NCBI GenBank assembly: GCA_017546085.1
Contig: JAFYXQ010000027.1
Coordinates: forward strand, 1 to 39,568
DNA length: 39,568 nucleotides
Reading direction: 5' to 3'
DNA from: Alphaproteobacteria bacterium
Lineage (GTDB): Bacteria > Pseudomonadota > Alphaproteobacteria > Rs-D84
Below the pieces are notes generated by a model. The model searched no databases and had not been told where the DNA came from. It was given only the letters and a program-made list of their open reading frames with translations. A program made the position numbers and the translations under genes. This document shows, in pieces, positions 4,696 to 37,930 of the stretch; within the stretch, counting starts at the first letter, position 1, and the number at the start of each line of letters is the position of its first letter.

Positions 4696-4744
4696 ACTAT
4701 TAATGATACCCCCCAAATCCACACATGTCAATTTGCAATGTAAA

Positions 4745-4770
4745 ATAAAAAATCCCCCAAAATGGGGGAT
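4745..4770 (-). terminator. intrinsic terminator downstream of rnj
   Basis: Stem ATCCCCC / GGGGGAT with a 5-nt loop, followed on the minus strand by a T-run. Confidence 0.7.
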
Positions 4771-4773
4771 AGA

Positions 4774-6585
4774 TTATTTCTGAATAAAATGCACGCGGTA
4801 TTGCGGTTTTTTATCCGCACCAAGGGATGCACGAACAACCTTGTTTGATGCAGTTTGCACCGCACGAACAAGATTATTTTTATCCTTACGTTCTGCCTTG
4901 GTCAAACCATCGATTGCGCGCGTGATTTCAATCTGAATCTGACGCTTCATAAAACCGGTTTCATCAGTTTCAAAGATACCGGCACTGGAAACTTCTGGGG
5001 TCCCCTTCAGAAAACCACGTTTATCAATCGGCAGAGTTACAAATACCGCGCCATTGGTCGCAATTTTCTTGCGGTTTTTATAAACCTGATCGTTGGCACT
5101 GCGTTCTGTTTCACCTTCCATAACAACGTATGAAGTTTCTATGGTTTCTGCAATATATGGTTCATTGCCATCTGATAAAGCAAGCATTTCACCATTATGG
5201 ATTACCATCATATGTTTTGCACCACCACGTTCCATCGCCATTTTACCGTTTAACATTTCGTTAATATAATCGCCATGCATTGGAACCGACACCTGAGGAT
5301 GAACCATATCATAAAATTTTTCTAATTCTGGACGGCCCGCATGTCCACTGGCATGAACGTTATCTGTATCAAAGATAGTATGCGTTTTAATACCCATACG
5401 TGCCAATTTGTTATACAGGTATGAAACGTCCTGTTCGCGCCCCGGGATAATAATCGCGCTAAAAACAACTGTGTCTGTTGGTTGCAGTTTCATTTCCTTG
5501 ACCTGACCATGACACAGGCGGGTCAACATCGCAAACTTTTCACCCTGGGAACCTGTCAAAAATATAGCCTGTTTTTCAGCCGGCAAATCCTTGATTTCAC
5601 TGTGCAGATACACGTCATCCTTGTTCAAATAGCTAAATTTAATCCCCATTTCACGAAATTCCGGCAGACCAACATATGGCACAGGATTTGGATTACTACG
5701 TTCCTTAATCGCGGCAACGCGACCAGATGCACGTGCAGCCTCTGCAAACATTTTGATACGCGCCAAACTGCGTGAATATCCAGTTACAATTACACGACCC
5801 GGGGCATTTTTCATAATTTCCGTTAATGTATCACGAACCTGCGTTTCTGTAACCTGCTTCGTTTGACGTGAAGAATTTGTTGAATCACACATACATGCCA
5901 ACAATTTCGGATCAGAACCAATTTCACGCAGACGTGCGAAGTCTGTTGGTGCCTCTACCGGAATGTCGTCATTAAATGTCCAGTCGCCAGTATGCAAGAT
6001 TTTACCGGCATCTGTTTTAATAATTAACATTTGCGCTTCGGGAACAGAATGGGTTACATGGAATGTTTCAATTGTAAAAGGATCAAGTTCCACAGTTGCA
6101 CCATTATGGTCAAATTCAACAATGTCTGTGGTTGGGTTGAAATCCATTTCAATACCCGCAAATGTACGACGTAAAATTTCCGCAGGGAAACGGGTACAAT
6201 AAATTGGTTTTCTAAATTTTGGCCAAACATATTTTAATGCACCAATATGGTCTTCGTGCCCATGTGTTACGATAAAACCAACGACATCCTTCTTGCGCTT
6301 TTCAAGCCAGGTTGTATCACAATACTGAACGTCCCCTGCCCCAATTTCTTCGTCAAGGAACCCCATACCACAATCAACAATTAAGTATTTACCGCGGAAC
6401 TTGTAAACATACATATTCTGACCAATATGTTCCAAGCCACCCAATGCCATAAAATACATTTTATCATCATTGGCATCGATTTCATGTTTATTCATCCCCT
6501 TAATCGCGCTTGGGGTTTTCGGCGTAGCACCCTTTTTTAATGGCGCTGATTTTTTTTCTTTTGTTTTTTCTTTTACTTTTACCAT
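4774..6585 (-). CDS. rnj: ribonuclease J
   Basis: 603-aa ORF with the metallo-beta-lactamase HxHxDH motif (THGHEDHIG), a beta-CASP-like body and a Lys-rich N-terminal extension. Confidence 0.9.
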   Translation of the reverse strand: MVKVKEKTKEKKSAPLKKGATPKTPSAIKGMNKHEIDANDDKMYFMALGGLEHIGQNMYVYKFRGKYLIVDCGMGFLDEEIGAGDVQYCDTTWLEKRKKDVVGFIVTHGHEDHIGALKYVWPKFRKPIYCTRFPAEILRRTFAGIEMDFNPTTDIVEFDHNGATVELDPFTIETFHVTHSVPEAQMLIIKTDAGKILHTGDWTFNDDIPVEAPTDFARLREIGSDPKLLACMCDSTNSSRQTKQVTETQVRDTLTEIMKNAPGRVIVTGYSRSLARIKMFAEAARASGRVAAIKERSNPNPVPYVGLPEFREMGIKFSYLNKDDVYLHSEIKDLPAEKQAIFLTGSQGEKFAMLTRLCHGQVKEMKLQPTDTVVFSAIIIPGREQDVSYLYNKLARMGIKTHTIFDTDNVHASGHAGRPELEKFYDMVHPQVSVPMHGDYINEMLNGKMAMERGGAKHMMVIHNGEMLALSDGNEPYIAETIETSYVVMEGETERSANDQVYKNRKKIATNGAVFVTLPIDKRGFLKGTPEVSSAGIFETDETGFMKRQIQIEITRAIDGLTKAERKDKNNLVRAVQTASNKVVRASLGADKKPQYRVHFIQK

Positions 6586-6820
6586 TTATTAACCTTTGTT
6601 TATGTTTAACATTGCATAACCACCCAATTCATTACCAATAAGTTTTTTTGCCTATACGTAGTGAATCTGTGGTTATGCGTTCATATCCCATGATATTTAT
6701 TTATTCCAATAAAAACACAGGAATTATTTCATGCAGATGTATTGTTATCTGCATCCCCTACATGATAAATTCCTACATATTGTAGTACAAATTTGTCTAA
6801 AATCAAGCCAATAAATGAAA

Positions 6821-6847
6821 TTCGCCCATTCAACACAAATGGGCGAA
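6821..6847 (-). terminator. intrinsic terminator at the distal end of the phage-like block
   Basis: Stem TTCGCCCA / TGGGCGAA with an 11-nt loop, directly after the stop at 6852. It is followed on the minus strand by T-rich sequence. Confidence 0.6.
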
Positions 6848-6851
6848 TGAT

Positions 6852-7109
6852 TTATTTTATTACCGCACCCTTGATTAAATTCAGGTCTTCTTTGATATCA
6901 TCAATTTTTATCTGAATTTGACCAATGCCCGTTTCAAGTATTGTTGTGCGGTTTTCGAGTGATGATACACGTGCATTTACACGTTCAAGTTCTGATACTG
7001 AAAAATCTTGGCGGGCAACCCAATAAATTAGCCCGCCAATAAAAGCAATCAAAAACCAACTGTCGCGCAAAAAGTCAATAAAAGATATTGCACCATTACT
7101 TCCCACCAT
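6852..7109 (-). CDS. phage-block membrane protein (one TM helix plus coiled coil)
   Basis: The ORF-track start at 7136 is a TTG. The internal ATG at 7109 has a G-rich SD (GGGGGG). Features are a TM helix WFLIAFIGGLIYWV followed by a heptad-like C-terminus. Confidence 0.5.
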   Translation of the reverse strand: MVGSNGAISFIDFLRDSWFLIAFIGGLIYWVARQDFSVSELERVNARVSSLENRTTILETGIGQIQIKIDDIKEDLNLIKGAVIK

Positions 7110-7308
7110 AATCAGCCCCCCGTCCACGCGATACAAGGGATTCTATTTGATGAATAAGGGAACGCTGACCTTCGACAAAGCGAAGTTGCGAATCCGACAC
7201 ATCCGGTCCCAGCGCACGTTCAATCGTTATTTGGCGCAAATGTTCCAATACGCGTTTGCCTGACGCAGTTCCAAATGTGCGAGCATACGACTGTTCGATA
7301 TCTATCAT
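7096..7308 (-). CDS. small phage-block protein, function unknown
   Basis: 70-aa ORF whose start overlaps the portal stop in an ATGA arrangement. Confidence 0.5.
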   Translation of the reverse strand: MIDIEQSYARTFGTASGKRVLEHLRQITIERALGPDVSDSQLRFVEGQRSLIHQIESLVSRGRGADYGGK

Positions 7309-8540
7309 AACTGCCCCCCAAGAACTGATTCAATCGCCGTCATTTGCGCAATTGGGGCGATATATTTTAATTCTGCATCACCATTTAATTTTATTGGTAA
7401 AATTAATCCACGCGATGACAAAATTTGTAGCCCCCTGTCGCATAGTGGCCTGATAAATTCATGCAGCAAACGCCCATATGTTGCACCCAAGATTCGCATC
7501 ATATCTGAATTTCGCGCCATGATTTCCGTTGCTGTCATTTCTTTTTCTGACAATAATCCTAGTCTGTCTGCAAGCATCGTATGGCGTATGCGTTCGCGTA
7601 AATCCTTTAAAATAATTTGCGACACATCAAAATTTGAACCGCTTTGCAATGGTGTCAGACCAGTTGAACCGACCGCCTTAGGTATAATGGCACCTGGGGT
7701 CAGATTTATGTTATTTAGATTTATAACACCATCATCATCTGCCTGCCAAATGCCTGATACTGCGATAGTCGCGTTTTTCAAAACCAATTCTACAACCTTG
7801 TTCGCGGTTTTTATATCTGGCATTGCACGTAATACAGGACCGCGACCGTACAATTCACCACTGATTACTGACCAGCGAAAGATTATATACGGATTCGTTT
7901 CAAATGAGCCTGTGGATACAATATTATTTTCAATATCACCACCGACATCCAACCAAGCTGTAAATTCTGTACCAACCAAGGACTGAACTAACTTTAATTG
8001 TGTTTCCGGATCGCGTTTTATCATATCACGCAAATTTGCAGGAGGTGTCCATGTTGGGTATCGCGATATCACCTCATTGGCAGACATAGATGTGGTGTGA
8101 AATACTGCATTTGGTAAAATCGCAATGTCAGACATTGGAATCGCCGTAAATGTAAATGCCGACGATGAACCTATTGGGGATTGCCCCATAAATAAGCACG
8201 CAGTCCCCAATGTTACCAAATCCATATAGCACTGATGTATCGTGGTATAAAAATTAGAATCATTTAGATTTGAACGCAATACAGATGTAGCATAATCTGC
8301 ATTTTGGGCAAAATCGCTTTCGCCAACCAACTGAATCCATAATGATTCTGGCGGGGTTAACAAAGTATAAATAGATGCCGCCAAATTGTCTGCCGCATCC
8401 GATGCAGTCGCGTCAAACAATGTTGCTGCTTCATCATCAGCAGTTGGCATTGTATAACGACGCGCATCATCCCAACGACGTAACCATGGTTCGCGTTTAT
8501 CCAAGGCCTGTTTATACAAAGAATATAAGTTTTGTTTCAT
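7305..8540 (-). CDS. portal (head-to-tail connector) protein, T7 gp8-like
   Basis: N-terminus SLYKQALDKREPWLRRWDDARRYTMP parallels T7 gp8 SVYERLKNDRAPYETRAQNCAQYTIP. The internal GELYGRGPV parallels gp8 GESYGRSYI. An AAGGAG SD is present. Confidence 0.8.
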   Translation of the reverse strand: MKQNLYSLYKQALDKREPWLRRWDDARRYTMPTADDEAATLFDATASDAADNLAASIYTLLTPPESLWIQLVGESDFAQNADYATSVLRSNLNDSNFYTTIHQCYMDLVTLGTACLFMGQSPIGSSSAFTFTAIPMSDIAILPNAVFHTTSMSANEVISRYPTWTPPANLRDMIKRDPETQLKLVQSLVGTEFTAWLDVGGDIENNIVSTGSFETNPYIIFRWSVISGELYGRGPVLRAMPDIKTANKVVELVLKNATIAVSGIWQADDDGVINLNNINLTPGAIIPKAVGSTGLTPLQSGSNFDVSQIILKDLRERIRHTMLADRLGLLSEKEMTATEIMARNSDMMRILGATYGRLLHEFIRPLCDRGLQILSSRGLILPIKLNGDAELKYIAPIAQMTAIESVLGGQL

Positions 8541-8584
8541 GATAAAAAAACTCCTTTTTTTAGGTTATGAGTGTTCTTTGCTTA

Positions 8585-9448
8585 TTAAATTTTGAAATTT
8601 GTGTTTGCTGAAAATGTCTTTATCGTTCCCCCAACTGGGCGCACAGGTATCGGGGGCTGTGCAATCGCGCCTGCCACAGCATCAAGTCCATCATCATGCA
8701 TACCATTGCCCAATGGGGACCAACCCAACATTTCTGACATTAATGGGGTTTGTGTTACGCGCGCATGTGCGTACAGGCGCCCTGTGGACAAAACCGGTTC
8801 AATTGCGTCTAAGATTCGATCTGATTTTGCACGATTGTTTGAAACCCGATTTACATAGATATTCATTCCGCTGCGCGATGCACAATCACGCATAATTTCG
8901 GGTATTCCGCCGCCAATTCCATTTGTTTCAATTGTTATTCGACACAGTCCATATTTTCGCATGAATTCAAGAACCATATCACACTGTTTTGACAATGGGA
9001 ATTGTTCTTCGTCTGACACAGTTAGATACAAGATATTATGTATAAAAACTGTGCGCGACCTGTCATCACGATACAATAAAACACAGGCACTGCCATCGCG
9101 TCCCCTGCGTCCAGTTGACGGATCCCAATACAAAACAGAACCTGAAATCTGATACGTTCCGATTTTTGCATTGCGCGCATCAAATTCCATATCATAAAAA
9201 TGAATTCCGCCAGGGTCTAAACGCGCACGATCCGGCGGCATGAAATCGAGCATCATTTGCGCAGAAAAATGTCGCAGTCCAACAATTTCACGCATTTGTT
9301 CAATCTTGTCTATTGGGAACAATTCCGGCCACACAGGATTTCCATCACTGTCAACTATCGGAATTCGTAATATTTTATACCCCCGTAAAAAAGGAATTGA
9401 AAAAGCATTTTTTTCATATAACATTGAACCAAAGAAGGAATTAGACAT
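8585..9448 (-). CDS. terminase large subunit, C-terminal (nuclease) half of a split gene
   Basis: VWPELFP...FSAQMMLDFMP linker, YWDPSTGRRGRDGSACVLL, ITIETNGIGGG and HDDGLDAVAG fit a TerL RNase-H-like nuclease domain. The start is placed at the ATG at 9448, which has a GGGGG SD. The ORF-track start at 9523 is a TTG lying antisense to dnaB. Confidence 0.72.
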   Translation of the reverse strand: MSNSFFGSMLYEKNAFSIPFLRGYKILRIPIVDSDGNPVWPELFPIDKIEQMREIVGLRHFSAQMMLDFMPPDRARLDPGGIHFYDMEFDARNAKIGTYQISGSVLYWDPSTGRRGRDGSACVLLYRDDRSRTVFIHNILYLTVSDEEQFPLSKQCDMVLEFMRKYGLCRITIETNGIGGGIPEIMRDCASRSGMNIYVNRVSNNRAKSDRILDAIEPVLSTGRLYAHARVTQTPLMSEMLGWSPLGNGMHDDGLDAVAGAIAQPPIPVRPVGGTIKTFSANTNFKI

Positions 9449-11012
9449 GGATTTTACCCCCAAAACTTTGCCAACTAATTTAGAAGCAGAACAAGCCGTA
9501 CTGGCCGCGGTTTTAATGAACAACCGTGCACTAGAACGCGTATCAGAATTCCTGAAATATGAACATTTTTCACATCCTGCACATCAAGAAATATACAAGT
9601 TAGCGGAAAAACAATTCGCAGCAGGGATTCCTTTTGATATTATTACGGCGAAAAACTACCTTGACCAACAGGGGGTCTTAGAATCCGTTGGCGGGGTGGA
9701 TTATTTGACCCAATTGTCTGGCGCGGGCGCAACCGTTGTTAACGTGGAACAATACGGACGCATCATCTATGAACATGCGTTACGTCGCCAATTGATTAAT
9801 TTAGGTCAAGATATTATGGACAAGGCATTTATCGAAGACCTTGATACGCCTGTTACACGCCAAATTGAATTAGCAGAATCTAAATTATTTGATATGGCAA
9901 CATCAGGTGCATCTGAACGTGAAATTACATCCATTTCAACTGCGTTACAAAGCGCACTGGCCGAAGCAGAAATCGCATACAAGGCAGATGGACAATTGTC
10001 TGGTCTGACCACGGGACTTAACGCGCTCGATAAATCAATAAGTGGTTTGCACCATTCTGACTTGATTATTATCGCAGGTCGTCCTGCGATGGGAAAAACG
10101 ACATTGGCTATGAATATGGCATTTAACGCCGCAAATGCAATTGCGTATGGGCGCGCAAATAAAAATTACAAGGGCGCCGTCGTATTTTTCAGTCTTGAAA
10201 TGTCCGCATCACAATTGGCGGCACGTGTGCTGTCTTCGCAATCAAAAATTCCTGCATCAGCAATGCGTGAAGGGACATTGACTGATGAAGATTTCCTGAA
10301 AATGTCCCAATATTCTGCTGCAATCGGCAAGGTACCTTTGTTCATAGATGATACACCTGGTATGTCAGTACCGATGATGCGAACACGTGCACGCAGATTG
10401 GCGCGCAAACATGGTGGAATCGCGCTAATTGTAATTGACTACCTGCAATTGATGACAGCCCCAGGTGGCAAACGCAGCGACAACCGCGTTCAGGAAATTT
10501 CTGAAATAACACGCGGTCTTAAAATGCTGGCCAAGGAATTAGATGTTCCTGTTATTGCACTGTCCCAGCTATCCCGAAGTGTAGAAGCGCGCGATGATAA
10601 ACGTCCACAGTTGGCAGACCTGCGTGAATCAGGGTCTATTGAGCAGGACGCGGACATCGTTATGTTTACATATCGTGAAGAGTACTATCTGCAAAACCGC
10701 GACCCATCAGAAAGATTATCAAATACAACAAACAATACAATGGTTGAATCGTGGCAAAAACGCCTTGAAAAAGCACGCGGCAAGGCTGATATCATTATCG
10801 GAAAAAACCGACATGGACGCCCAGAAACGGTTCGTACCGCTTTCTTTGGTGATTACAGTTTATTTGATAATTTGGACGAATTCCAATCGCGTGGCGATGA
10901 TGAATTTGCGCAACCCGCCCAAACAATTTCTGCAAGTTCATTGACACCAGATCCAGATTCTATGCCAACGGCGATTGATCCAAATGAAATTCCTGATGAT
11001 ATGCCGTTGTAA
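9447..11012 (+). CDS. dnaB: replicative DNA helicase DnaB
   Basis: Start moved to MDFTPKTLPTNLEAEQAVLAAVL (GAAGGA SD). Walker A GRPAMGKTT, Walker B LIVIDYLQLM, SQLSR and ADIVMF are present. There is an acidic C-terminal tail of about 45 aa. Confidence 0.93.
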   Translation: MDFTPKTLPTNLEAEQAVLAAVLMNNRALERVSEFLKYEHFSHPAHQEIYKLAEKQFAAGIPFDIITAKNYLDQQGVLESVGGVDYLTQLSGAGATVVNVEQYGRIIYEHALRRQLINLGQDIMDKAFIEDLDTPVTRQIELAESKLFDMATSGASEREITSISTALQSALAEAEIAYKADGQLSGLTTGLNALDKSISGLHHSDLIIIAGRPAMGKTTLAMNMAFNAANAIAYGRANKNYKGAVVFFSLEMSASQLAARVLSSQSKIPASAMREGTLTDEDFLKMSQYSAAIGKVPLFIDDTPGMSVPMMRTRARRLARKHGGIALIVIDYLQLMTAPGGKRSDNRVQEISEITRGLKMLAKELDVPVIALSQLSRSVEARDDKRPQLADLRESGSIEQDADIVMFTYREEYYLQNRDPSERLSNTTNNTMVESWQKRLEKARGKADIIIGKNRHGRPETVRTAFFGDYSLFDNLDEFQSRGDDEFAQPAQTISASSLTPDPDSMPTAIDPNEIPDDMPL

Positions 11013-11026
11013 AAAATAATTATTTT

Positions 11027-11067
11027 ACTTGCGCAAGTCCTAAAAATTGACTATTATTTTGTCAAGT
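11027..11067 (+). promoter_or_regulatory. candidate operator/promoter region upstream of the double-HTH gene
   Basis: Perfect 12-bp palindrome ACTTGCGCAAGT (11027-11038). An inverted TTGAC/GTCAA pair lies at 11047-11065, and a further CAAGT half-site at 11063-11067. Confidence 0.3.
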
Positions 11068-11089
11068 AATAGTTTTTAGGAGTTTTGCT

Positions 11090-12097
11090 ATGGCCCAAGA
11101 AGAAATTATATTTCCAAATAATATTCGCAACATTCGTTTGGCAAGCGGCATGAAAATGACAGAATTGGCACGAAAAAGTGGCCTGTCCCTGTCTGCTGTT
11201 TCAAAAATCGAAAAAGGTGTACGTCGCCTGAACCAAAAGCAGTTGTTGAATGTTTGCAATATCTTAGGATGCAAATTATCTGATATTTTCATCAAGGAAT
11301 CTGATGAGGTTGCAGACAAATGGCAAAACGAAATCAAACGTCGTATGAATGATAACGAAAATAATGGACTGAAAATTTTTGGTAGTGGGCTGCGCAAAAT
11401 TCGTCAATTATCTGGAAAAACAATTGCACGCGCCGCCAAGGATGCAGGTATGACATTATCTGTTTATCATAAAATCGAGGTTGGCCAACGTGAAATCTAT
11501 CAGAATGAAATTGAACCGTTGGCAAAATCTTTTGCAATGGGCGCAGAACAAATGTTTGATAAAATTGCTGATTTATACAAATCTGGCGAATTGAACAAAC
11601 ACATCAATAAGGTTAAAGAACGTGTTAAATCTGTTCTTATTCCTGGCAGTCCTGTATCTGGCATTGATATGCAGGGCAGTTTGTATGGCGCAAAATTGTA
11701 TGATAGCGCACGTAAAAAGTTAGTTCCTGTGTTTGGTACACCATCTGGGAAATCAATTGCATTCAAAAAATCTGACAAGACAATGATTGTTGCGCCTGGC
11801 GAACTCGAAGGACGCAAGGGTGTTTATGCCATTATTCCAAATACAAAAAGATTAGGTGGAATCATTCCTGAAAAATCGTATGTTTTTGCAGATGCTACAA
11901 AAACCGCCCAAGTTGGCGATTTGGCAGTATGTATCGATACTGACTTTGATTCATTGGATACAGAAACCACTGTTTCTGCACAAATTGTCAGCGTACGTAA
12001 AGATGCCAAGGGAAAGATTTTTGGACATGTTTTATCCCCAGAAGAAAAAATTGTTGGAAAAACCATGCACCGTATCGTTATGATTATCATGGAATAA
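11090..12097 (+). CDS. XRE-family regulator with two HTH domains and a degenerate S24/LexA-like C-terminal domain
   Basis: Two Cro/C1-type HTH units are present (IRNIRLASGMKMTELARKSGLSLSAVSKIEKG and LRKIRQLSGKTIARAAKDAGMTLSVYHKIEVG). The C-terminus has a GD-hydrophobic beta pattern like the S24 fold, but GII replaces the catalytic Ser motif. An AGGAG SD is present. Confidence 0.7.
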   Translation: MAQEEIIFPNNIRNIRLASGMKMTELARKSGLSLSAVSKIEKGVRRLNQKQLLNVCNILGCKLSDIFIKESDEVADKWQNEIKRRMNDNENNGLKIFGSGLRKIRQLSGKTIARAAKDAGMTLSVYHKIEVGQREIYQNEIEPLAKSFAMGAEQMFDKIADLYKSGELNKHINKVKERVKSVLIPGSPVSGIDMQGSLYGAKLYDSARKKLVPVFGTPSGKSIAFKKSDKTMIVAPGELEGRKGVYAIIPNTKRLGGIIPEKSYVFADATKTAQVGDLAVCIDTDFDSLDTETTVSAQIVSVRKDAKGKIFGHVLSPEEKIVGKTMHRIVMIIME

Positions 12098-12125
12098 TCT
12101 ATAACCATAACAGGAGAGAGACACC

Positions 12126-12764
12126 ATGAAGGCAAAAATTCGCACAAACGCATCAAAGCTGCTAAATCTATATCGTCAGGCGCACGTTATTGTTGGTGGT
12201 TGGTCCGCAGTTAACCCTATCTTCGTTAATGAAACAACAGATGAAATTATTCAGGAATTGCAAAATATGCCAACGGGTAATTTGTTGATTCAGCATATCC
12301 AGAATCTGCGCAATGGCATAACCCCAATGAATACGATTAATCGCGAATTGTTACCATATGGCGGTATGATGGCGGACGAGGTTTTATCAATTTCACTAAC
12401 TAATGCGCAATGGCGTGAAATCGAAGATGCGGTTAATGAATTTACACCCGATGAATATGGTTTAAATCATTTTTTGTCCCTTGATATTGTAAAGCGTTTT
12501 GGTGCGGAATGGCCCACTGCGTTACGTGCAATATTATCTGAAAAACCATACCTGAAAGAAAAATGGGATACTGTAATCCAAACATATAATGCATATCGGC
12601 TGTGGAATACTGCACGTGATATTATCGCTGCACCAATTTCTGAACGCGTGCGCGCACAGGTTCAGGTTGATATGCCAGAATACGAAACATATCTGCCAAT
12701 GTTTGGCGACGCGGGTACAGATTTGCTTGAAAAACTGCGTACATTTATCAGTTCCATGAATTAG
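12126..12764 (+). CDS. hypothetical protein
   Basis: 212-aa ORF with a GGAGAG SD. It converges on the TerL N-half stop with a 2-nt gap. I recognise no family. Confidence 0.55.
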   Translation: MKAKIRTNASKLLNLYRQAHVIVGGWSAVNPIFVNETTDEIIQELQNMPTGNLLIQHIQNLRNGITPMNTINRELLPYGGMMADEVLSISLTNAQWREIEDAVNEFTPDEYGLNHFLSLDIVKRFGAEWPTALRAILSEKPYLKEKWDTVIQTYNAYRLWNTARDIIAAPISERVRAQVQVDMPEYETYLPMFGDAGTDLLEKLRTFISSMN

Positions 12765-12766
12765 TA

Positions 12767-13363
12767 CTATTCTGTTCGATATATTGTATCGTGCGTATGT
12801 GGTGTTCCGATGTATATCATCGAACCTGATGGCGATAAGATAAAATCAAGCTCGCGCAGTCTTTCGCGTAAATCTTCACGTTTCTGTACCGTGTTTGATG
12901 TGTTTGGAACCTCGACATCGTCGCATATTATTAGGTCTGCACGCATACCTGTTATATTTCCATGAATTCCCTGACAGATAACAGAAGGCTCACGAATCCC
13001 AATTGGCCGATTAATCGTTATGCGACCCGCAGACCATTCTTTCTTGTTCGCTGGAATCAATTCTGTACACCATGGATGATTTTCCAATATATGCCGAATA
13101 TGCGAAACCATGCGTGTCGACAAACCATTTTCCGCAGACAATATTAAAATTCGCGTCTGTGGGTATAAATACAAAACACATGTGGCAAATATACCTACAA
13201 CCGTGGATTTACCAGAATGCCGAAATGCCATTAACAATCCACGGCGCGGCGATTCTTCAAAGACACTCACCAAAAATTCCATTATTCGACGGTGATGCGC
13301 TGGGGTCGCAAAACCTAAAACACGATTCCATTCATCTAAAAAACTAACAAATTCCGCAATCAT
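12767..13363 (-). CDS. terminase large subunit, N-terminal (ATPase) half of a split gene
   Basis: Walker A FRHSGKST, Walker B DLIICDDVE and IYIGTP are present. The ORF stops right after the ATPase core (…HDTIYRTE*). Confidence 0.8.
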   Translation of the reverse strand: MIAEFVSFLDEWNRVLGFATPAHHRRIMEFLVSVFEESPRRGLLMAFRHSGKSTVVGIFATCVLYLYPQTRILILSAENGLSTRMVSHIRHILENHPWCTELIPANKKEWSAGRITINRPIGIREPSVICQGIHGNITGMRADLIICDDVEVPNTSNTVQKREDLRERLRELDFILSPSGSMIYIGTPHTHDTIYRTE

Positions 13364-13704
13364 GCCAGTTCATCGATTCTTGATAGCAAAGACCTTAATA
13401 GGTTTGTTTTTTTAGCCTTGGCCGTTTTTAATTTGTTTAAATTTGTAATATGTTTTTCTTCGTATGGCGCTGCGGTTTCTGACTTAAGACGCTTTAAAAC
13501 CGCACCTTCGCTGATACCAGTCGCCGACATTCCTGATGCGCCAAATTTTGCACGTTGGGTCGCAAGTGCTTTTTTAACGAGATTTGTTTTTTCTTTTTTA
13601 TCTGATGCCATTTGCATCAAGATTTCTTTGCGTTGTGATTTTGCCGTTTTTTTATCATCTTTGTAATCTAGCAAGTCTGTTACGTCAGATACAATTTGCC
13701 CCAT
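13360..13704 (-). CDS. Lys-rich small protein (possible small terminase or internal protein, by position only)
   Basis: 114-aa ORF whose stop overlaps the TerL-N start (ATGA). I recognise no motif. Confidence 0.5.
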   Translation of the reverse strand: MGQIVSDVTDLLDYKDDKKTAKSQRKEILMQMASDKKEKTNLVKKALATQRAKFGASGMSATGISEGAVLKRLKSETAAPYEEKHITNLNKLKTAKAKKTNLLRSLLSRIDELA

Positions 13705-13738
13705 TTTAAATCCTTTTTATTTTATGTGTTGTTTTTTG

Positions 13739-15454
13739 TTAAATGCTATAACTGCCATAAATTGTTACGGATATAACCGTTATTGGATACGGTTCTGAAC
13801 CATGTATCACCCAAATTGGTTTCATAAAATCGCCGCTTGTTCCAAATAAATTGATAGACACATCGCCACTGAAACCTGTGCAATCTGATGTGTATATTTC
13901 ATTTGGCAACGATACACGATGATTATTTATGAAGACCGATTTGGTATCAATTACACGCGCAGTTAATTTTCGTACCCTGAATTTTTGTGCGTTATGTTTT
14001 GAAAAACGCAATGGTAAACCAGATGCACAAAACGAAATATTCATATTTCCGCAATCATACATTTCATTGACATCAAAATATTCCAATAAAAAATTATCGC
14101 CACGCGCAATCACAGCATAGGTTTTATTATCGCATGTACATACTGATAAAAATCTGCCATTTGTTTTATAGGTGCCCCATGCTGATATTCCCAATGTTGA
14201 ATTACGATTCAAGACCGCCATTTCACCATCCGAACGCACAATATACAAACGCCTTTGCGATGCGTTATAAGTCATATCTGTCGGTTCATGCAGCAAATGC
14301 TTGGACAATGCACACAAATCGTTTGCGTTATATTTCCCCCCTATTTCATCAAGGCTTAACTCACGAACGTCATGCCCATTCCCTGATATAAATATTGTTG
14401 TATTTTCTATTTTTTGTGGTGGTAAATAATGTGATGGATACGAACCGACTGATGTATGTTGCATAATATTAACAGACGACGGGGTTAGTGGACTATTTGA
14501 TATTACCCATTCCCCAACATTTGTCAGGATCTGCAGGTTATCACTGCTGACAATTGTACAAATTTGCTGACGCTGCTTTGATAGCAGGGTTATAAATATT
14601 GCTTCGTTGTCAAGGCCTGTACCGACATTAAAATTATCATGCACCCCAACATGAGACATCCATATTCCCGATGGCCAATCGCGCGAACCGCCAAATATCA
14701 ATCTATCCTGATGAAATGTGATACTGCATGGCCAACCACGACGATTGCTGAACGCAGATTCAGACCAATCGGATATCGCATTTGATGGCGCAGTATATGA
14801 ACCATTCGTATATGCAACAACCTGGGTTGGGCTGATATATTCTGTTATCAACCACTGACGTTCAAGAAAATATAAACGTCCCAAGACATTATCGGATGTC
14901 CAAAAATTCTTATTCGTGGTTAATGTTGCATAATTATTGCCGGTATTATTTGCAGATACAGTGATGGTAATATCAGATGCGTCATCAAATTTTAAAAATG
15001 GTATATTCACAGACATATATGAATCATTGCGCAAGAACGCAAAATCAGACATTTTAAAAATATCATCATCCTTGCTTAGAACTTGGGGCATATGATCGGG
15101 ATGAACAAATATCATCGTGCCAAATCGTTGGGCGTATTGCAATAATGATAAATCCTGATACGACCACGGTGTAATCAAATCTTGATATCGCGTATCGTTA
15201 TGATATATATACATATGGTAATCTGTCATAACGATTAAATATTCTTCATCGTCTGATATAGAAAAGGAAATTAGACGCGCCGCACCACGCAATGTCGCAA
15301 TACTTTTTAAACCCGCACGACGTGATAAACCGCCACCAGATAGAACATCCATATTTTCTAATTTTGACAACCCATTTATATTATCACGTGCAAAAAATTC
15401 GGGCGAAACTTCGCCATCAGAAAATAAATTCTGCGTTTTTATAAATTCTGTCAT
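13739..15454 (-). CDS. tail tubular protein B / nozzle, T7 gp12-like
   Basis: N-terminus SDGEVSPEFFARDNINGLSKLENMDVLSGGGLSRRAGL parallels T7 gp12 KGGISQQPDILRYPDQGSRQVNGWSSETEGLQKRPPL. The internal FHQDRLIFGGS parallels gp12 FFRNRLGFLSG. At 571 aa it is shorter than gp12. Confidence 0.6.
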   Translation of the reverse strand: MTEFIKTQNLFSDGEVSPEFFARDNINGLSKLENMDVLSGGGLSRRAGLKSIATLRGAARLISFSISDDEEYLIVMTDYHMYIYHNDTRYQDLITPWSYQDLSLLQYAQRFGTMIFVHPDHMPQVLSKDDDIFKMSDFAFLRNDSYMSVNIPFLKFDDASDITITVSANNTGNNYATLTTNKNFWTSDNVLGRLYFLERQWLITEYISPTQVVAYTNGSYTAPSNAISDWSESAFSNRRGWPCSITFHQDRLIFGGSRDWPSGIWMSHVGVHDNFNVGTGLDNEAIFITLLSKQRQQICTIVSSDNLQILTNVGEWVISNSPLTPSSVNIMQHTSVGSYPSHYLPPQKIENTTIFISGNGHDVRELSLDEIGGKYNANDLCALSKHLLHEPTDMTYNASQRRLYIVRSDGEMAVLNRNSTLGISAWGTYKTNGRFLSVCTCDNKTYAVIARGDNFLLEYFDVNEMYDCGNMNISFCASGLPLRFSKHNAQKFRVRKLTARVIDTKSVFINNHRVSLPNEIYTSDCTGFSGDVSINLFGTSGDFMKPIWVIHGSEPYPITVISVTIYGSYSI

Positions 15455-15481
15455 AAAAAATCCCCTATGGTTTGCACAAAT

Positions 15482-16000
15482 TTAATAACGAACGTTTAAT
15501 AATGAAAAATTAGATATAGATTCAGAAGTACATGATGTGCTGTCTATAAATTTTGCAGACTGTAATTCTGTTTCATACAATGCAACCAACATTCTGTATA
15601 TTGAACTATCACCAATTAGCGGCATACAAAATTCCATTGCGAGACGGGTCGCCGCCAAGGAAACAAAATAACTAGGGAAGTATTCGGGCGACGTCCGCAC
15701 AAGCGCAGCTATCGTTGTTTTATCGCCTATGGCAGATATTTTATTTCCTAATATTTTACCCCTGCTTTTTATTATTCGTAAAACATTTGATGGAATAATA
15801 AAATCACCATCTGTGTTTTTTATTAATTCCATATCACATGTTGCAAAGCGCCATGGATACGATGAAATTAATGTATCAATTACAACATCAAATAATGTGC
15901 GCGATAATTTTGCAGACGCACTATCATCTGAAAAGGACTGAATTGGGGATTCCCCAAGTTTTAATAACGCCATAGAACATAAGTCTATTTTTGTAACCAT
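15482..16000 (-). CDS. tail tubular protein A / adaptor, T7 gp11-like
   Basis: IDLCSMALLKLGESPIQSFSDDSASAKLSRTLFDVVIDTLISSYPWRF parallels T7 gp11 [45 protein letters not shown]. An AGGGGG SD is present. Confidence 0.65.
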   Translation of the reverse strand: MVTKIDLCSMALLKLGESPIQSFSDDSASAKLSRTLFDVVIDTLISSYPWRFATCDMELIKNTDGDFIIPSNVLRIIKSRGKILGNKISAIGDKTTIAALVRTSPEYFPSYFVSLAATRLAMEFCMPLIGDSSIYRMLVALYETELQSAKFIDSTSCTSESISNFSLLNVRY

Positions 16001-16031
16001 AAAATTCCCCCTATTATCTTTTAATCAAATC

Positions 16032-16060
16032 AAGGTCGGCGATATCACCGACCTTTTTTT
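16032..16060. terminator. hairpin between the capsid-proximal genes and the tube genes
   Basis: Stem AAGGTCGG / CCGACCTT with an 8-nt loop. The plus strand has T7 downstream, so on the minus strand an A-run precedes the stem. This is a bidirectional-type hairpin. Confidence 0.45.
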
Positions 16061-16078
16061 AAACAAATATAAATAAAA

Positions 16079-16309
16079 TTATGACAACGCAATCGTTGTT
16101 ACATTCAAATCTGTAACGTTGATTTTTTTGATAGCTGTATTATCTGAACCATTGATAATTATAATATCACCAATGTTCATCAACGTTTTAACACTGTTAA
16201 AATAACCGTTGGCGGAAATTGTCGCCAATGTTTCAGGCGCGCTATAATGCCACAATGTAAATCCGTTTGCATACGCAATTACAGATAAATTTTTATTCTG
16301 AAATGCCAT
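16079..16309 (-). CDS. small protein downstream of the capsid gene (decoration or head-completion candidate)
   Basis: Start moved to MAFQNKN (AAGGAAA SD), giving 76 aa. Function is unknown. Confidence 0.5.
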   Translation of the reverse strand: MAFQNKNLSVIAYANGFTLWHYSAPETLATISANGYFNSVKTLMNIGDIIIINGSDNTAIKKINVTDLNVTTIALS

Positions 16310-16338
16310 GTTATTTTCCTTTTGGTAAAATTGTGAAA

Positions 16339-17166
16339 CTATGCAATATCGCCATCCGAACACTTAATGCGAACAATACCATCGCCGTCAATTAAAACAG
16401 CCCCTTGGGACATACTGTTGCTGATAAAGTGCGCCGCACGTTCCCCATGCCAAGAAATATCCGTTTTAACTTCCTGACCACAGGCATGACCAATACTTGT
16501 CGCATGATAAATAAAACAATCGCGATTTGTTTCGCTGACCGGCAGACCGTTATACAACACCCAATTGATACCCAACCATTTGCGATTTTCAAAACCATTT
16601 AACAACGGTGTATTGGACCCAACATAATCAGCAGAAACAAATTCATCCATTGACAATAATTCATTCCACTGATGCACACCAACAACTGCAAAACGACGAC
16701 CATCGTCTGGAACGTCATTTGTGTTCAAGATTTCAACTGCTGATAAAATCAATTCTTTGGTCAGACCTGTTGAATAATCACCAACAGATGCAGTTGTGGT
16801 GTTCATCGCTTCAACAATTAATTCATCCGTCTTGCGTCCCAATGCATATGCACCAGCAGATGCAACAACACGACGTTCGTCGATGTTTGTTTTTAATTCA
16901 TCCATGCTGTCAACCCAATCGCCAGCATAGTAATCTTGTAATAAACATTCAACCGGTTCATGATTTAAATTCATCACAGGAACAATCCCATGACGCGATT
17001 TTGTGCTGGCAATGCCACGACCAACCTTTTGAAAGGTTGTAGATGCACCGACAACACCTGATTTACTGCGTATTGTGCCACGCAATTTTGTGCCCATTTG
17101 CTGATACGCCAAATGAACATCTGCTTCGAATTGTTTTACGAAGACATTATCTATGGAAACAGACAT
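16339..17166 (-). CDS. major capsid protein (HK97-fold, T7 gp10-like N-terminus)
   Basis: Start moved to MSVSIDNVFVKQF (AAGGGA SD). FVKQFEADVHLAYQQ...GASTTFQKVGRG parallels T7 gp10 FLKVFGGEVLTAF...GKSAQFPVLGRT. It lies after a scaffold-like gene. Confidence 0.78.
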   Translation of the reverse strand: MSVSIDNVFVKQFEADVHLAYQQMGTKLRGTIRSKSGVVGASTTFQKVGRGIASTKSRHGIVPVMNLNHEPVECLLQDYYAGDWVDSMDELKTNIDERRVVASAGAYALGRKTDELIVEAMNTTTASVGDYSTGLTKELILSAVEILNTNDVPDDGRRFAVVGVHQWNELLSMDEFVSADYVGSNTPLLNGFENRKWLGINWVLYNGLPVSETNRDCFIYHATSIGHACGQEVKTDISWHGERAAHFISNSMSQGAVLIDGDGIVRIKCSDGDIA

Positions 17167-17353
17167 AAAAAAATCCCTTGTGTTAAAATTAAAAGACCGA
17201 CACATCTGTATCGGTGTTCTGATTTTGTATTTTGGTTATGCAAATAATGCGCCAGAAAAACAAAAGGTTATTTGGGTCCGTAACTTAATACAGATTATCC
17301 GATAAAAAAATATCAGTCAGACTGTGCACATTTAATCTGACTGATAAATTTCT

Positions 17354-17380
17354 AAAAAAATCCCCCGCTGATGCGGGGGA
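17354..17380 (-). terminator. intrinsic terminator after the Lys/Ala-rich gene
   Basis: Stem TCCCCCGC / GCGGGGGA with a 4-nt loop, followed on the minus strand by T7. Confidence 0.7.
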
Positions 17381-17387
17381 AATTATT

Positions 17388-17753
17388 TTATTTTTTCTTG
17401 CAAACTTTTTTTGCAACTGGTTTTTTTACTGCCACTTTTTTTACAGCAACTTTTTTTGCAGCTGGTTTTACAGCTACTTTTTTAACTGTTGCTTTCTTTG
17501 CAACTGGTTTCGCAGCAACTTTCTTAACTGCTACTTTCTTTGCAGGTGCTTTCTTTGCAACTGGTTTCGCAGCAACTTTTTTAACTGCTACTTTCTTCGC
17601 AGGTGCTTTCTTTGCAACTGGTTTCGCAGCAACTTTTTTAACTGCTGCTTTCTTCGCAGGTGCTTTTTTTGCAACTGGTTTCGCAGCAACTTTCTTTTCA
17701 GCAGCCTTTGCAGCAGCTTTCTTCGCGGCAGATTTTCTAAACAAGAATGCCAT
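17388..17753 (-). CDS. Lys/Ala-rich histone-H1-like basic protein
   Basis: Start moved to MAFLFRKSAAKK (AAAGGAGAG SD). The protein is almost entirely the repeat KKAPAKKVAVKKVAAKPVA. Confidence 0.7.
   Translation of the reverse strand: MAFLFRKSAAKKAAAKAAEKKVAAKPVAKKAPAKKAAVKKVAAKPVAKKAPAKKVAVKKVAAKPVAKKAPAKKVAVKKVAAKPVAKKATVKKVAVKPAAKKVAVKKVAVKKPVAKKVCKKK
17500..17700. repeat. 57-bp tandem repeat, about 3.5 copies, inside the Lys/Ala-rich gene
   Basis: The unit gcaactggtttcgcagcaactttcttaactgctactttctttgcaggtgctttcttt repeats at 17500, 17557 and 17614 with few substitutions, and a partial copy follows. Confidence 0.85.
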
Positions 17754-17859
17754 TCTTTCTCTCCTTTCACTAATTTTTGGATAGAACAAATCCGTTTTGT
17801 TCTTGATTTACATTTTATACTAAATACAAAAATTAGTAAAGCGGAAAGTACATATTTTT

Positions 17860-18519
17860 TTATTTTGAATATAATTTTTTAAATCCGTTTTCTATTTTTC
17901 TAATATATTCTGCATCGCCATCACGCCAATATTTTGGATCGCGCATCATACGACGCAAATCAGAATCAGATAAATTTTCAGACGATGACGAATCTGTTTT
18001 TACATCAGGTTCCATCGACAGCATCATTTTATAAACGCTTTGAATTCCTTGGGGTGTAGCACACAACGCTTCAAATGCATCACATGGTAAAAAACGTTCA
18101 CCAAATAAATTTATTGCATGCAATGCGTCGTTCATTTTTTCTGTTCCACCAAAAAAATTTTTTAATTCATTTATTGCACTACTTTCATTTTGCACAGAAA
18201 ATAAATCTGATATTACAGGCGATAAAAATTCATTTACGACATCATAAATTTTTTCCACTTGATTTTTTGTTAGACCAATTTCTAAAAATTTTTGTCGTAA
18301 ATTTTCATCATCATACATTTCATTCGTCGGATATTCTGATGCTTTTTCAGGAACGCCAATTGCACGTTTGAATTTGTTTCGTGTATCTTCATCCGAATCT
18401 GAATTTGGAATCGTTACCATTGAACCAATTTTCTTTTCCAGTTCTGTATAAGATTTTATCAAGGCATCCGAATTTAATGAGCCATCAGAATTTAAAAATT
18501 TTTCCGGAATATTATTCAT
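17860..18519 (-). CDS. capsid scaffolding/assembly protein, T7 gp9-like
   Basis: Start moved to MNNIPEKF (AAGGA SD). The C-terminus LRRMMRDPKYWRDGDAEYIRKIENGFKKLY parallels T7 gp9 MIKAMSDPRYRTDANYRRQVEQKVIDSNF. Confidence 0.7.
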   Translation of the reverse strand: MNNIPEKFLNSDGSLNSDALIKSYTELEKKIGSMVTIPNSDSDEDTRNKFKRAIGVPEKASEYPTNEMYDDENLRQKFLEIGLTKNQVEKIYDVVNEFLSPVISDLFSVQNESSAINELKNFFGGTEKMNDALHAINLFGERFLPCDAFEALCATPQGIQSVYKMMLSMEPDVKTDSSSSENLSDSDLRRMMRDPKYWRDGDAEYIRKIENGFKKLYSK

Positions 18520-18709
18520 CTTTTTGTCCTTTGTTTTCGTTTGATTTACGTAAAAAATAAATTCCACCAAGTGTAAAAATTGATTGCAACATTATAAATA
18601 TATCTGTATCGCCAACTAAATATGCGGCAATCGCAGATATGATTCCAGTCGCGGAAATTATATATGTACGGTGGCCAGATAAAAATCCACCCTTGATTAT
18701 TGTTTTCAT
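18512..18709 (-). CDS. holin-like small membrane protein
   Basis: 65 aa with two predicted TM helices and a charged C-terminus. It lies between the endolysin and scaffold genes and overlaps the scaffold start by 8 nt. Confidence 0.5.
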   Translation of the reverse strand: MKTIIKGGFLSGHRTYIISATGIISAIAAYLVGDTDIFIMLQSIFTLGGIYFLRKSNENKGQKDE

Positions 18710-18719
18710 AAACACACCG

Positions 18720-19130
18720 TTATAAATAAAATAAGAAACCATCTATGTCAGCAATATAACCACGCGACAATGCCCATTGCGGTATTATATCCGCAGAATG
18801 AAATCTGGTTGCGCCAAAACATCTGTCAGCCAAACCATTTGCCAACATGCGCCGCGCTGTGCGCAGACACATTTCAAAGCCCCTATTATTCGCAGCAACA
18901 AATATGCGTTCGTGGTGTTCTGATTTTTCATCTAATACATCAAATATATTTTTATCACGAATTATGTCCGATATTGTGAGCCCTGTTTTTTCAGATATAT
19001 TTTTTATCATCGATGTCATCGCTTCGACCAATGATAATGATGATGCACCTGTTTGTGCATATACAGTACGCGCAACCTGATACGACAATGTTGCGGACGT
19101 GTCTGCGTTTTTAATTAATGTTAAATGCAT
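18720..19130 (-). CDS. cell-wall hydrolase, SleB/Hydrolase_2-like (endolysin)
   Basis: Start moved to MHLTLIKNAD. ARTVYAQTGASS...AMTSMIKNI...GATRFHSADIIPQWA...DGFLFY fits the SleB-type pattern (ARTiyaEa ... gAt.fh ... P.Wa ... h.Fy). Confidence 0.72.
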   Translation of the reverse strand: MHLTLIKNADTSATLSYQVARTVYAQTGASSLSLVEAMTSMIKNISEKTGLTISDIIRDKNIFDVLDEKSEHHERIFVAANNRGFEMCLRTARRMLANGLADRCFGATRFHSADIIPQWALSRGYIADIDGFLFYL

Positions 19131-19148
19131 TTGTTGTTGCCCTTGGAT

Positions 19149-19207
19149 AAAAAAATCCATGCAAAAAAATTGCATGGAAAATAAAAAAACCACAACAGAT
19201 GTTGTGG
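19149..19207 (-). terminator. two tandem intrinsic terminators between birA and the endolysin start
   Basis: Hairpin 1 is CCACAAC-atct-GTTGTGG plus T7 (19183-19207). Hairpin 2 is TCCATGCA-loop-TGCATGGA plus T7 (19149-19178). Only about 18 nt separate the second T-run from the endolysin ATG. Confidence 0.6.
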
Positions 19208-19234
19208 GCATAATCTTCGCTGTTTACGTATTGT

Positions 19235-19263
19235 ATATTAACATAAATCAATATAAAAGTCAA
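19235..19263 (-). promoter_or_regulatory. sigma70-like promoter candidate upstream of the tandem terminators
   Basis: On the minus strand: TTGACT, a 17-nt spacer, then TAATAT. AT-rich background means chance occurrence cannot be excluded. Confidence 0.4.
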
Positions 19264-19286: not shown

Positions 19287-19967
19287 TTAAATTTGAACTT
19301 CATCACCATAAACCAGTAAATATCGTGTGTCGCGACGTAATACCAATGCACCATTTTCATTTATTCCAACCATTGTCGCAGGCGCACCCTGATATCGAAC
19401 AGATGTATTCATACCGGCCGCCAATTCTGTCCAGCGATCACGAACATTTCTAAAATCCGCATTCCGCCATTTATCCATATTCTTAATTAAACGGTTAAAT
19501 AATCTGTTTATTGGTGTTTGTGAATAAATATCCATCTTTGTCGTCTCGTACTTTGATACAGTTGGATTAGAATTTACATTTATACCAATTCCAACAATAA
19601 CAAATGGCCCTGCATAATCGATTAAAATGCCGGCAATCTTTTTCCCATCAACAAAGATATCATTTGGCCACTTTATTGTTGGATGAATTCCAAACGATGC
19701 GATTGTTTCTGCAACCGCAACCGCAACAGAATAAGACAAACGCGCATCACGTTCAGGACAATCATAAATAAAACTGACGTACAAATTCCCATGATGTGAT
19801 ATCCACTGACGACGAAAACGTCCACGACCCGCAGACTGAGCCGCCGCCAATATGGCCGTTTTATCAGCACCGCGACCATGCATGATTAATTCATGCGCAT
19901 AATCCTGAGTGCTGGGGATTTTATCAAAAGATATCACCCTATAATTCGCCAATTGAATACACCCCAT
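19287..19967 (-). CDS. birA: biotin--[acetyl-CoA-carboxylase] ligase (class I, no DNA-binding domain)
   Basis: GRGRFRRQWISHHGNLYVS (the GRGRxGRxW motif), KWPNDI and GIGINV are present. Confidence 0.88.
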   Translation of the reverse strand: MGCIQLANYRVISFDKIPSTQDYAHELIMHGRGADKTAILAAAQSAGRGRFRRQWISHHGNLYVSFIYDCPERDARLSYSVAVAVAETIASFGIHPTIKWPNDIFVDGKKIAGILIDYAGPFVIVGIGINVNSNPTVSKYETTKMDIYSQTPINRLFNRLIKNMDKWRNADFRNVRDRWTELAAGMNTSVRYQGAPATMVGINENGALVLRRDTRYLLVYGDEVQI

Positions 19968-37708: not shown

Positions 37709-37743
37709 CAAATCAGAAATAAAACGAAAGGGAGGAATTAATT

Positions 37744-37926: not shown

Positions 37927-37930
37927 TAAA

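Follow-up and report, generated by a model that had tools for sequence, protein, structure and literature searches.

Among the described systems closest to the locus treated here are the gene transfer agents (GTAs), which typically lack a DNA-binding small terminase (PMC11841831). CcGTA is controlled by processive antitermination, with terminators being bypassed by GafZ (PMC11150451), and processive antitermination also regulates BaGTA (bioRxiv 10.1101/2024.11.20.624540), a chimera of two phages extending over ~79 kb with 29 required genes (PMC9662315). In this study, we analyzed a window, i.e. the whole stretch of DNA of 39,568 nucleotides (nt) on the forward strand of contig JAFYXQ010000027.1 (assembly GCA_017546085.1), which originates from Candidatus Enterousia of the alphaproteobacterial order Rs-D84. 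It carries a 12.4-kb block of T7-like genes (6852-19211, delimited by listing and translation of open reading frames, ORFs). We consider it probable that this locus is a domesticated, chromosomally fixed remnant of a short-tailed phage of the T7/BPP-1 type, that is, a podovirus-derived, GTA-like element with a two-piece terminase. Domestication and functionality of the locus are well supported; from the conserved packaging genes we infer that DNA-filled particles may be produced, and the locus may, with less certainty, transfer genes.

An earlier note on this DNA, written before any database search, had offered two options, the surviving structural arm of a T7-like prophage or a domesticated particle-forming locus, and had stated that described GTAs come from long-tailed phages. 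The latter is roughly right for GTAs with known genes. A possible exception is Dd1 of Desulfovibrio, whose particles reportedly have a very short tail and a podovirus-like shape; the Dd1 genes are not established. Literature on Enterousia, on Rs-D84 and on podovirus or T7-like GTAs contained no description of the element, in a novelty check that is incomplete.

Conservation and vertical inheritance of the T7-like block

Searches of profile and structure databases bore out the T7-type proteins that had been read from the minus-strand ORFs of the block: the assignments of gp9, gp10, gp11, gp12, terminase and portal are supported by Pfam or PHROG profiles or by PDB structures (Table 1). The retained set comprises procapsid genes (portal, scaffold, and capsid), the packaging enzyme, a short tail (adaptor and nozzle), a small internal protein, and a lysis cassette. 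Replication and integration functions, large ejection proteins (gp15/gp16-type internal-core genes), the tail fibre, and a recognizable small terminase have been lost and are not found in the window. The 39.6-kb window also holds no integrase, attachment (att) sites or flanking repeats, and no polymerase, primase or phage origin genes, the sole replication gene being a host-type dnaB. Among all ORFs, Pfam and PHROG searches found no siphovirus-type prohead protease, tail tube or tape measure, and podovirus-type tail parts only. The earlier note had listed the missing RNA polymerase, DNA polymerase, primase, integrase, flanking repeats and adjacent tRNA correctly; the only tRNA of the window lies 19 kb from the block. 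Its statement that internal-core proteins are lacking holds for the large ones, but a weak gp14-like protein is present. A bearing on the phage origin of mitochondrial enzymes, which it had also raised, is unsupported, as T7-type RNA polymerase, DNA polymerase and primase-helicase are all missing from the window and its DnaB is an ordinary bacterial one.

A scan of the genome collection identified 7 species-representative genomes carrying the block, and equal gene order together with an equal split of the large terminase was found in these genomes as well as in two additional lineages from metagenomes and 11 contigs of IMG/VR with a guanine-plus-cytosine (GC) content of 0.34-0.51 (window ~39%). 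The comparison of order, split and flanks covers those loci of relatives where the regions could be read. The flank consisting of BirA, orf139 and orf80 is constant in the genome loci reaching it, while the far-side flank differs.

Among the relatives, synonymous divergence (dS) was >1 and saturated for every block gene, and the ratio of nonsynonymous to synonymous divergence (dN/dS) was 0.02-0.29. Values of dN/dS were 0.05-0.08 for the capsid, 0.04-0.08 for the portal, 0.03-0.07 for the ATPase half and 0.09-0.13 for the nuclease half of the terminase, next to 0.04-0.07 for DnaB and 0.06-0.16 for BirA as host proteins. All retained genes are thereby under purifying selection matching that on housekeeping genes in strength. 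Capsid and portal, with mean protein distances of 0.146 and 0.179, change more slowly than DnaB (0.20) and BirA (0.26); the capsid is 85-92% identical in relatives. The fastest-evolving proteins are the adaptor and the nozzle, the latter with the highest mean pairwise distance of the block (0.42). Distances of capsid, portal, nozzle and terminase correlated with those of DnaB at r = 0.84-0.91, and capsid and scaffold distances with those of BirA at r = 0.95-0.96; over all pairs of block and host proteins r was 0.84-0.96, except for nozzle and BirA (r = 0.66). No frameshifts were found in roughly two dozen loci of relatives that were examined, all with intact ORFs. The block is resident in the chromosome and inherited vertically with its host.

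Of the two options, a recent or decaying prophage has to be dropped, because block and split are conserved, dS is saturated, dN/dS is low, and genes for mobility and replication are lacking; none of the hallmarks of an ordinary prophage (integrase, att junctions, patchy distribution, decay by frameshifts) was found. The domesticated locus is supported by the conserved order and position beside BirA across many species-level genomes, the saturated dS, the low dN/dS and the co-divergence with host genes. On all four points that the earlier note had singled out as decisive, i.e. absence from relatives with att junctions, frameshifts in orthologous blocks, failure of the profile assignments, and T7 genes adjoining the block, the outcome favours a domesticated element.

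Table 1. Genes and regulatory features of the T7-like block and its surroundings, in order of position within the window (aa, amino acids; HTH, helix-turn-helix).
Feature	Position	Strand	Basis and remarks
Strong bidirectional terminator at block end	6820-6848	-	sequence
Small protein, N-terminal membrane helix and coiled coil	6852-7136	-	sequence reading
Bbp19-like small phage protein	7096-7308	-	PF25181, 1.4e-14
T7-type portal	7305-8540	-	PF12236, 8.5e-80; T7 portal structures 6R21, 3J4A
Large terminase, C-terminal half (remaining ATPase region and T7-type RNase H-like nuclease)	8585-9448	-	PF22530, 2.8e-6
dnaB, host-type replicative helicase	9447-11012	+	NF006606, TIGR00665
XRE-family regulator, 335 aa, two HTH domains, C-terminal domain unassigned	11090-12097	+	HTH_3 in two stretches, 1.8e-18
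orf212, all-helical, 212 aa	12126-12764	+	AlphaFold2 (AF2) model, pLDDT 80
Large terminase, N-terminal ATPase half, 198 aa	12767-13363	-	phrog_38 positions 272-459, 5e-41
gp14-like small internal virion protein, 114 aa, weak assignment	13360-13704	-	PF24072, 0.0014, below cut-off
gp12-type nozzle, shortened to 571 aa	13739-15454	-	phrog_376, 6e-84; PDB 8ck1_A 'Tail Nozzle', 5.5e-30
gp11-type adaptor	15482-16000	-	phrog_394 'tail protein', 7e-27; PDB 8ck1_E, 8i4m_G connector/adaptor chains
Small conserved virion-module protein, role unassigned	16079-16363	-	phrog_18004, 1e-12; true start MAFQNK
Major capsid protein	16339-17166	-	PF19821, 2e-69; phrog_3437, 6e-71
Structured capsid leader	17196-17380	-	terminator 17361-17380; palindrome and T-tract 17313-17344; third hairpin 17196-17215
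Lys/Ala-rich histone H1/Hc2-like protein	17388-17789	-	weak HC2 and H1-like matches below cut-off
T7 gp9-type scaffold (capsid assembly protein)	17860-18519	-	PF05396, 1.9e-9, above curated cut-off
Holin-like small membrane protein, two hydrophobic segments	18512-18742	-	sequence reading; start probably MKTII
SleB/Hydrolase_2-related lysin, 136 aa	18720-19130	-	hhalign; true start MHLTL
Two tandem intrinsic terminators between promoter and first gene	19156-19207	-	RNAalifold
Sigma-70 promoter TTGACT, 17 nt, TGnTAATAT (extended -10)	19235-19263	-	upstream of block, conserved
orf80, 80-aa Cro/CI-type HTH protein	20460-20702	-	homology to S24 repressor HTH

Split terminase, virion genes and regulatory sequences

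The block is not the uninterrupted minus-strand run that had been described. Three opposite-strand genes, occupying 3.3 kb (9447-12764), break it and split the large terminase, whose two halves cover phrog_38 consecutively (272-459 by the ATPase half and 466-702 by the nuclease half). When joined, they match T7 gp19 (4BIJ) at 3.5e-24, the match falling on the N-terminal (ATPase) half. The ATPase half retains Walker A, Walker B and the GTP motif, and the nuclease half the acidic motifs WDP, ETNG and DDGLDA; the split point is a variable linker between the motifs GTPH..IY and PFL.GY. The split is ancient and tolerated. At least 120 clusters of the nuclease half (90% identity) are 271-288 aa long, none of them being intact, and one further sequence has 402 aa; intact terminases appear only at ≤50% identity. 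The 402-aa database copy (P0001) arises from an exact internal tandem duplication of ~120 residues and is probably an assembly artefact. In the most divergent copy, L026 (L numbers designate loci of relatives), the terminase is split with dnaB and a different second gene, and neither the XRE gene nor orf212 is present; in this locus (4731-11317), the gap holds dnaB and an 834-aa secreted-looking protein, and a type IV pilin-like gene, not the portal, comes after the nuclease half.

Two ways of restoring one chain were considered. In alignment with intact terminases, the N half reaches its last residues and the C half starts from about residue 20; therefore, intein fragments have no room, and an intein or trans-splicing of the halves was rejected. 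Programmed excision of the insert as in skin or nifD elements is unlikely, as the junctions lack direct repeats, a recombinase is missing, and dnaB would be lost.

The nested DnaB exceeds the cut-offs of the bacterial equivalog models NF006606 (617 bits, cut-off 540) and TIGR00665 (505, cut-off 385) and stays below that of the phage_DnaB model, by which a phage replication gene was rejected. The XRE regulator is 79-84% identical in relatives, and its C-terminal domain has no significant similarity to the S24 repressor. The orf212 family is confined to the present clade; no match was found in Pfam, PHROGs or NCBIfam, and Foldseek found no fold match of the AF2 model in PDB or BFVD. The stop codons of orf212 and the ATPase half are 2 nt apart with no terminator in between. 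At the other junction, dnaB and the nuclease half share the sequence CATG, in which their start codons overlap (ATG at 9447 for dnaB, and at 9448 on the minus strand for the nuclease half). Insertions and deletions between this latter ATG and the next Met codon measure 3 and 18 nt (8 genomes), and thus the first stretch of the nuclease half is coding. Within its first codons (9397-9449) lie the dnaB promoter (TTGAAA, 16 nt, TAACAT) and the ribosome-binding site, and this stretch is nearly invariant in 8 genomes, synonymous positions included, while elsewhere ~7-12% of synonymous third positions are invariant. Synonymous-site conservation inside dnaB, tested for a promoter of the nuclease half, gave a weak signal only.

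Regarding gene order, the earlier note had described T7 order except for the portal. This is incomplete, since the split terminase was overlooked and the nearest phages and elements run portal-Bbp19-scaffold-capsid. The list of translational overlaps in the earlier note is correct: ATGA at 7305/7308 and at 13360/13363, and 8 nt at 18512/18519. The Bbp19-like gene comes after the portal in related phages, too, and the small ORF following the capsid gene has an equal position in pelagiphage Hodr and in MT838907. The gp14-like protein matches a 146-aa protein of L096 (6e-6), which in turn matches phrog_418 'internal virion protein' (4e-8). Some Rs-D84 genomes have a gene for a T7-type tail fibre reduced to its N-terminal anchor domain (180 aa; PF03906, 28.4 bits vs cut-off 25.2 in sister genomes). 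This fibre stub lies at 5508-6056 in L010, and the comparison included the interval that separates the gp14-like gene from the terminase in L001, L003, L006, L007, L016, and L018; the stub is absent from the window and six other loci, and L002 holds a 64-aa remnant. To judge from these sequences, it looks like the receptor-binding protein was lost stepwise in Rs-D84.

The lysin had been called a SleB-type endolysin. It has no direct Pfam match and no PDB match by sequence or by profile, but profile-profile comparison (hhalign) relates it to a domain that Pfam annotates as Hydrolase_2 in an 818-aa protein of a relative (98% probability, 6e-14). At its residue 26, where SleB-type hydrolases keep a Glu that we take to be the catalytic residue, the window and six close relatives have Gln; Glu is retained at the equivalent position in the distant Rs-D84 locus L021 and in L096 and L014. 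The holin-like protein is 67-88% identical in relatives and has no family match in Pfam or PHROG. For the protein encoded at the block end (6852-7136), which is kept in relatives, only faint XhlA-type matches were obtained; it may be spanin-like or a lysis accessory.

The Lys/Ala-rich gene had been placed correctly between scaffold and capsid. It holds internal 42/57-nt repeats and carries its own promoter-like site and a strong terminator. It occurs at an equal position in L010 and is absent from the Acetobacteraceae relatives; the insertion is specific to the Rs-D84 form. At the same junction, L014 (555-2628, GC 0.60, terminase intact) has two opposite-strand genes between scaffold and capsid, one of them encoding a 608-aa metallo-beta-lactamase/ODP-type protein.

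Upstream of the block, the -35 element, the extended -10 element and a downstream box, reading CATAAACAGC in six relatives and CGTAAACAGC in the window, are near-invariant in 7 genomes. The two leader hairpins with T-tracts occur in 7/7 genomes, and RNAalifold predicts both, with 5/15 pairs being compensatory; the terminator stems vary in sequence yet remain paired. The conserved promoter and the two covarying terminators suggest control by antitermination. Taken with the hairpins ahead of the capsid gene, they fit an operon that processive antitermination opens, as in CcGTA and BaGTA (PMC11150451; bioRxiv 10.1101/2024.11.20.624540). In the capsid leader, the palindrome ATCAGTCAGA...TCTGACTGAT is perfect, and its stem is invariant across genomes, unlike those of the neighboring terminators. 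Instead of acting simply as a terminator, the palindrome could serve for recognition by a protein or an RNA. No Rfam family scored above threshold for the leaders.

The block limits given by the earlier note leave out orf80, a putative truncated repressor. With the N-terminal HTH of an S24 LexA/CI-like repressor flanking the Acetobacteraceae relative, it shares 55% identity (3e-31), and among Enterousia genomes it is 86-99% identical with dN/dS of 0.01-0.06. By this similarity, it is probably the ancestral repressor of the element, truncated by loss of the S24 domain. Next to it, orf139 (19939-20358) overlaps the birA start and has no family match; by sequence, its C-terminus resembles a winged-helix DNA-binding domain, and Rs-D84 relatives also have the gene beside the block. 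Otherwise, the window consists of housekeeping genes (XseA, TsaD, RNase J, BirA, RpsD, LpxI, RadC, Map, ZapA, and NrdDG). At 35666-38811, the genes for anaerobic ribonucleotide reductase NrdD and its activase adjoin tRNA-Asp, the window's only tRNA; these two genes fit strictly anaerobic gut life.

Proposed mechanism and alternative readings

In the favoured reading of a podovirus-derived, GTA-like element, an antiterminator made in a subpopulation of cells would allow RNA polymerase to read from the conserved promoter through the leader and internal terminators. Procapsids would then form, and the two terminase pieces would re-associate to a working ATPase-nuclease. Operating without a specificity subunit, this terminase would package host DNA by headful, as in known GTAs, and cell lysis would set free particles able to deliver DNA to related cells.

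Several points weigh against this reading. The organisms are uncultured, and no particle, packaged DNA or transfer has been observed. The receptor-binding fibre is absent here, with a 180-aa stub in some relatives, and the absence of gp15/gp16-type ejection proteins leaves DNA entry into a recipient unclear. No antiterminator for the block was identified, and outside the coding sequence of dnaB the nuclease half and the portal have no room for a promoter. Lysin activity is made doubtful by the Gln at the position of the conserved Glu. A T7-size head would hold far more than the 12-kb locus, and the common GTA trait of a head unable to accommodate the element's own genes therefore cannot be claimed here.

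The locus could also have been domesticated for a purpose other than gene transfer, such as PBSX-like defective killer particles, programmed altruistic lysis with release of DNA, exclusion of related phages, or a capsid container. We regard this as fairly unlikely. Purifying selection proves that there is a function without telling its nature; the parts for adsorption and ejection are being eroded, with the fibre stub lost repeatedly and gp15/16 absent; and nozzle and adaptor evolve fastest, as expected of parts facing another cell or phage. However, portal, both terminase halves and the catalytic motifs are among the most conserved features, which argues that packaging is still selected, and the nozzle and the full lysis cassette have been retained. 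The absence of some virion functions, together with related sequences in virome and IMG/VR collections, might alternatively point to a satellite or defective phage still spreading horizontally, for which a helper would supply fibre, ejection proteins, small terminase and replication. This is very unlikely. Integrase, att sites and a module with a replication origin are all lacking, an essential host-type dnaB sits inside the element, the position on the BirA side is fixed, and the block co-diverges with host genes at saturated dS; moreover, the IMG/VR matches with at least 72% capsid identity are the chromosomal block including dnaB. Hallmarks of phage-inducible chromosomal islands (PICIs) or capsid-forming PICIs were not found in the window either, with no integrase and no replication initiator, and the element has its own adaptor and nozzle.

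A functionless cryptic prophage remnant, kept only through the embedded dnaB, can hardly be credited and is largely refuted by the selection and distance data. An embedded essential gene would indeed shield the region from large deletions, and some parts, e.g. the fibre stub, are being lost. Embedding cannot explain, however, the codon-level constraint on every structural gene (dN/dS 0.02-0.29 at dS >1) or a capsid more conserved than DnaB. Frameshifts were found in none of the roughly two dozen relatives' loci, and Rs-D84 is an uncultured order with genomes mostly <1 Mb that shed useless DNA (PMC12306168).

Beyond the favoured reading of a domesticated GTA-like remnant, a more far-reaching version seems improbable to us, namely a working GTA of independent podovirus (T7/BPP-1-type) origin across Rs-D84, unsplit in Acetobacteraceae, in which a two-piece terminase is combined with a late transcript running antisense through orf212, the XRE gene and dnaB as a shut-off switch for the helicase. 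An antitermination-proof late transcript from the conserved promoter would cross these three genes antisense and thereby reach nuclease half and portal. Commitment to particles would then silence the replicative helicase, as a built-in switch to terminal differentiation.

If true, a podovirus-derived GTA would be a further independent domestication beside the GTAs with known genes, which all derive from long-tailed phages, and short-tailed virions would also be convertible into tools of the host. That uncultured gut bacteria retain ~9 kb of viral genes in genomes of <1 Mb implies a real benefit, a candidate for which is recombination that would offset the erosion of such small and isolated genomes. 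Being split by nature, and kept so over deep divergence, the large terminase offers a ready test of the ATPase and nuclease parts of the motor as separate chains. An essential replication gene placed head-to-head inside a virus-derived gene, with its promoter in the codons of the latter, is an unusual overlap of regulatory and coding information.

Relation to known phages, elements and gene transfer agents

The nearest phages are the human faecal virome fragment MT838907 (capsid 64% and portal 41% identical to the block) and Pelagibacter phage Hodr (OQ414635; capsid 42%, portal 30%). Both share the order portal-Bbp19-scaffold-capsid-small ORF-adaptor-nozzle, whereas in the Enterousia block portal and Bbp19 come after the terminase and the lysis genes come first. 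Hodr differs further in that its genome of 34 kb includes early genes and encodes large internal proteins of 783 and 1247 aa, and in that its terminase is of another type. With T7-like phages in the sense of Autographiviridae, the block shares the types of portal, scaffold, adaptor gp11, nozzle gp12, and terminase gp19, but no single-subunit phage RNA polymerase and no T7-type DNA polymerase/primase-helicase were found in the window, and of the gp14-gp16 and gp17 set the block has only the weak 114-aa gp14-like protein.

Another relative is a 13-kb podovirus-like element of Acetobacteraceae (Roseomonas, Teichococcus, Siccirubricoccus, and others), represented by L096 (5570-19230) and L097. It occupies one chromosomal locus in two genera, Pseudoroseomonas and Siccirubricoccus, between lysyl-tRNA synthetase/LPG synthase and DUF952, and its capsid is 75-100% identical across many Acetobacteraceae genera. 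Its genes encode an S24 repressor, portal, scaffold, capsid, adaptor, nozzle, a gp14-like protein, a pectate-lyase-like tailspike of 760 aa, a small ORF, a terminase of 480 aa, and a SleB lysin. Decay of the Siccirubricoccus element was rejected, as the apparent frameshifts recur in the flanking host gene and reflect assembly quality. In common with the Enterousia block are a capsid 55-58% identical, homologous portal, scaffold, adaptor, nozzle, gp14-like protein, terminase, SleB lysin and repressor HTH, and the absence of an integrase. Unlike the block, the element has an intact terminase, a full tailspike, a full S24 repressor, a small ORF before the terminase, and the ancestral gene order, with neither dnaB nor the histone-like insert. 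It may serve as a culturable model of the block's family, and its occurrence in the culturable Roseomonas group opens a route to laboratory study.

BaGTA of Bartonella is likewise a domesticated phage element in host-associated alphaproteobacteria with a physical tie to a replication function, which is a run-off replication module in BaGTA and the cell's own dnaB, without phage origin, in the block. The latter forms one compact block, unlike BaGTA, and an identification with BaGTA itself was rejected because the organism is Ca. Enterousia and the architecture differs. The ancestor of RcGTA was a long-tailed siphovirus of the HK97 type, equipped with tail tube and tape measure. In the Enterousia block, by contrast, Pfam and PHROG profiles show portal, scaffold, adaptor, nozzle, and terminase of T7 type but no genes for a long tail; the block further differs from RcGTA in its split terminase, in its lysis genes, which are placed within the cluster, and in that no activator of the gafA/gafYZ type was identified. 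With RcGTA of Rhodobacter capsulatus and CcGTA of Caulobacter crescentus, it has in common the absence of replication and integration genes and of a DNA-specific small terminase (PMC11841831), the terminators interrupting the cluster, the release by lysis, which is only predicted for the block, and the overall form, in which phage structural genes make up a chromosomal cluster of ~12-15 kb that is passed on vertically.

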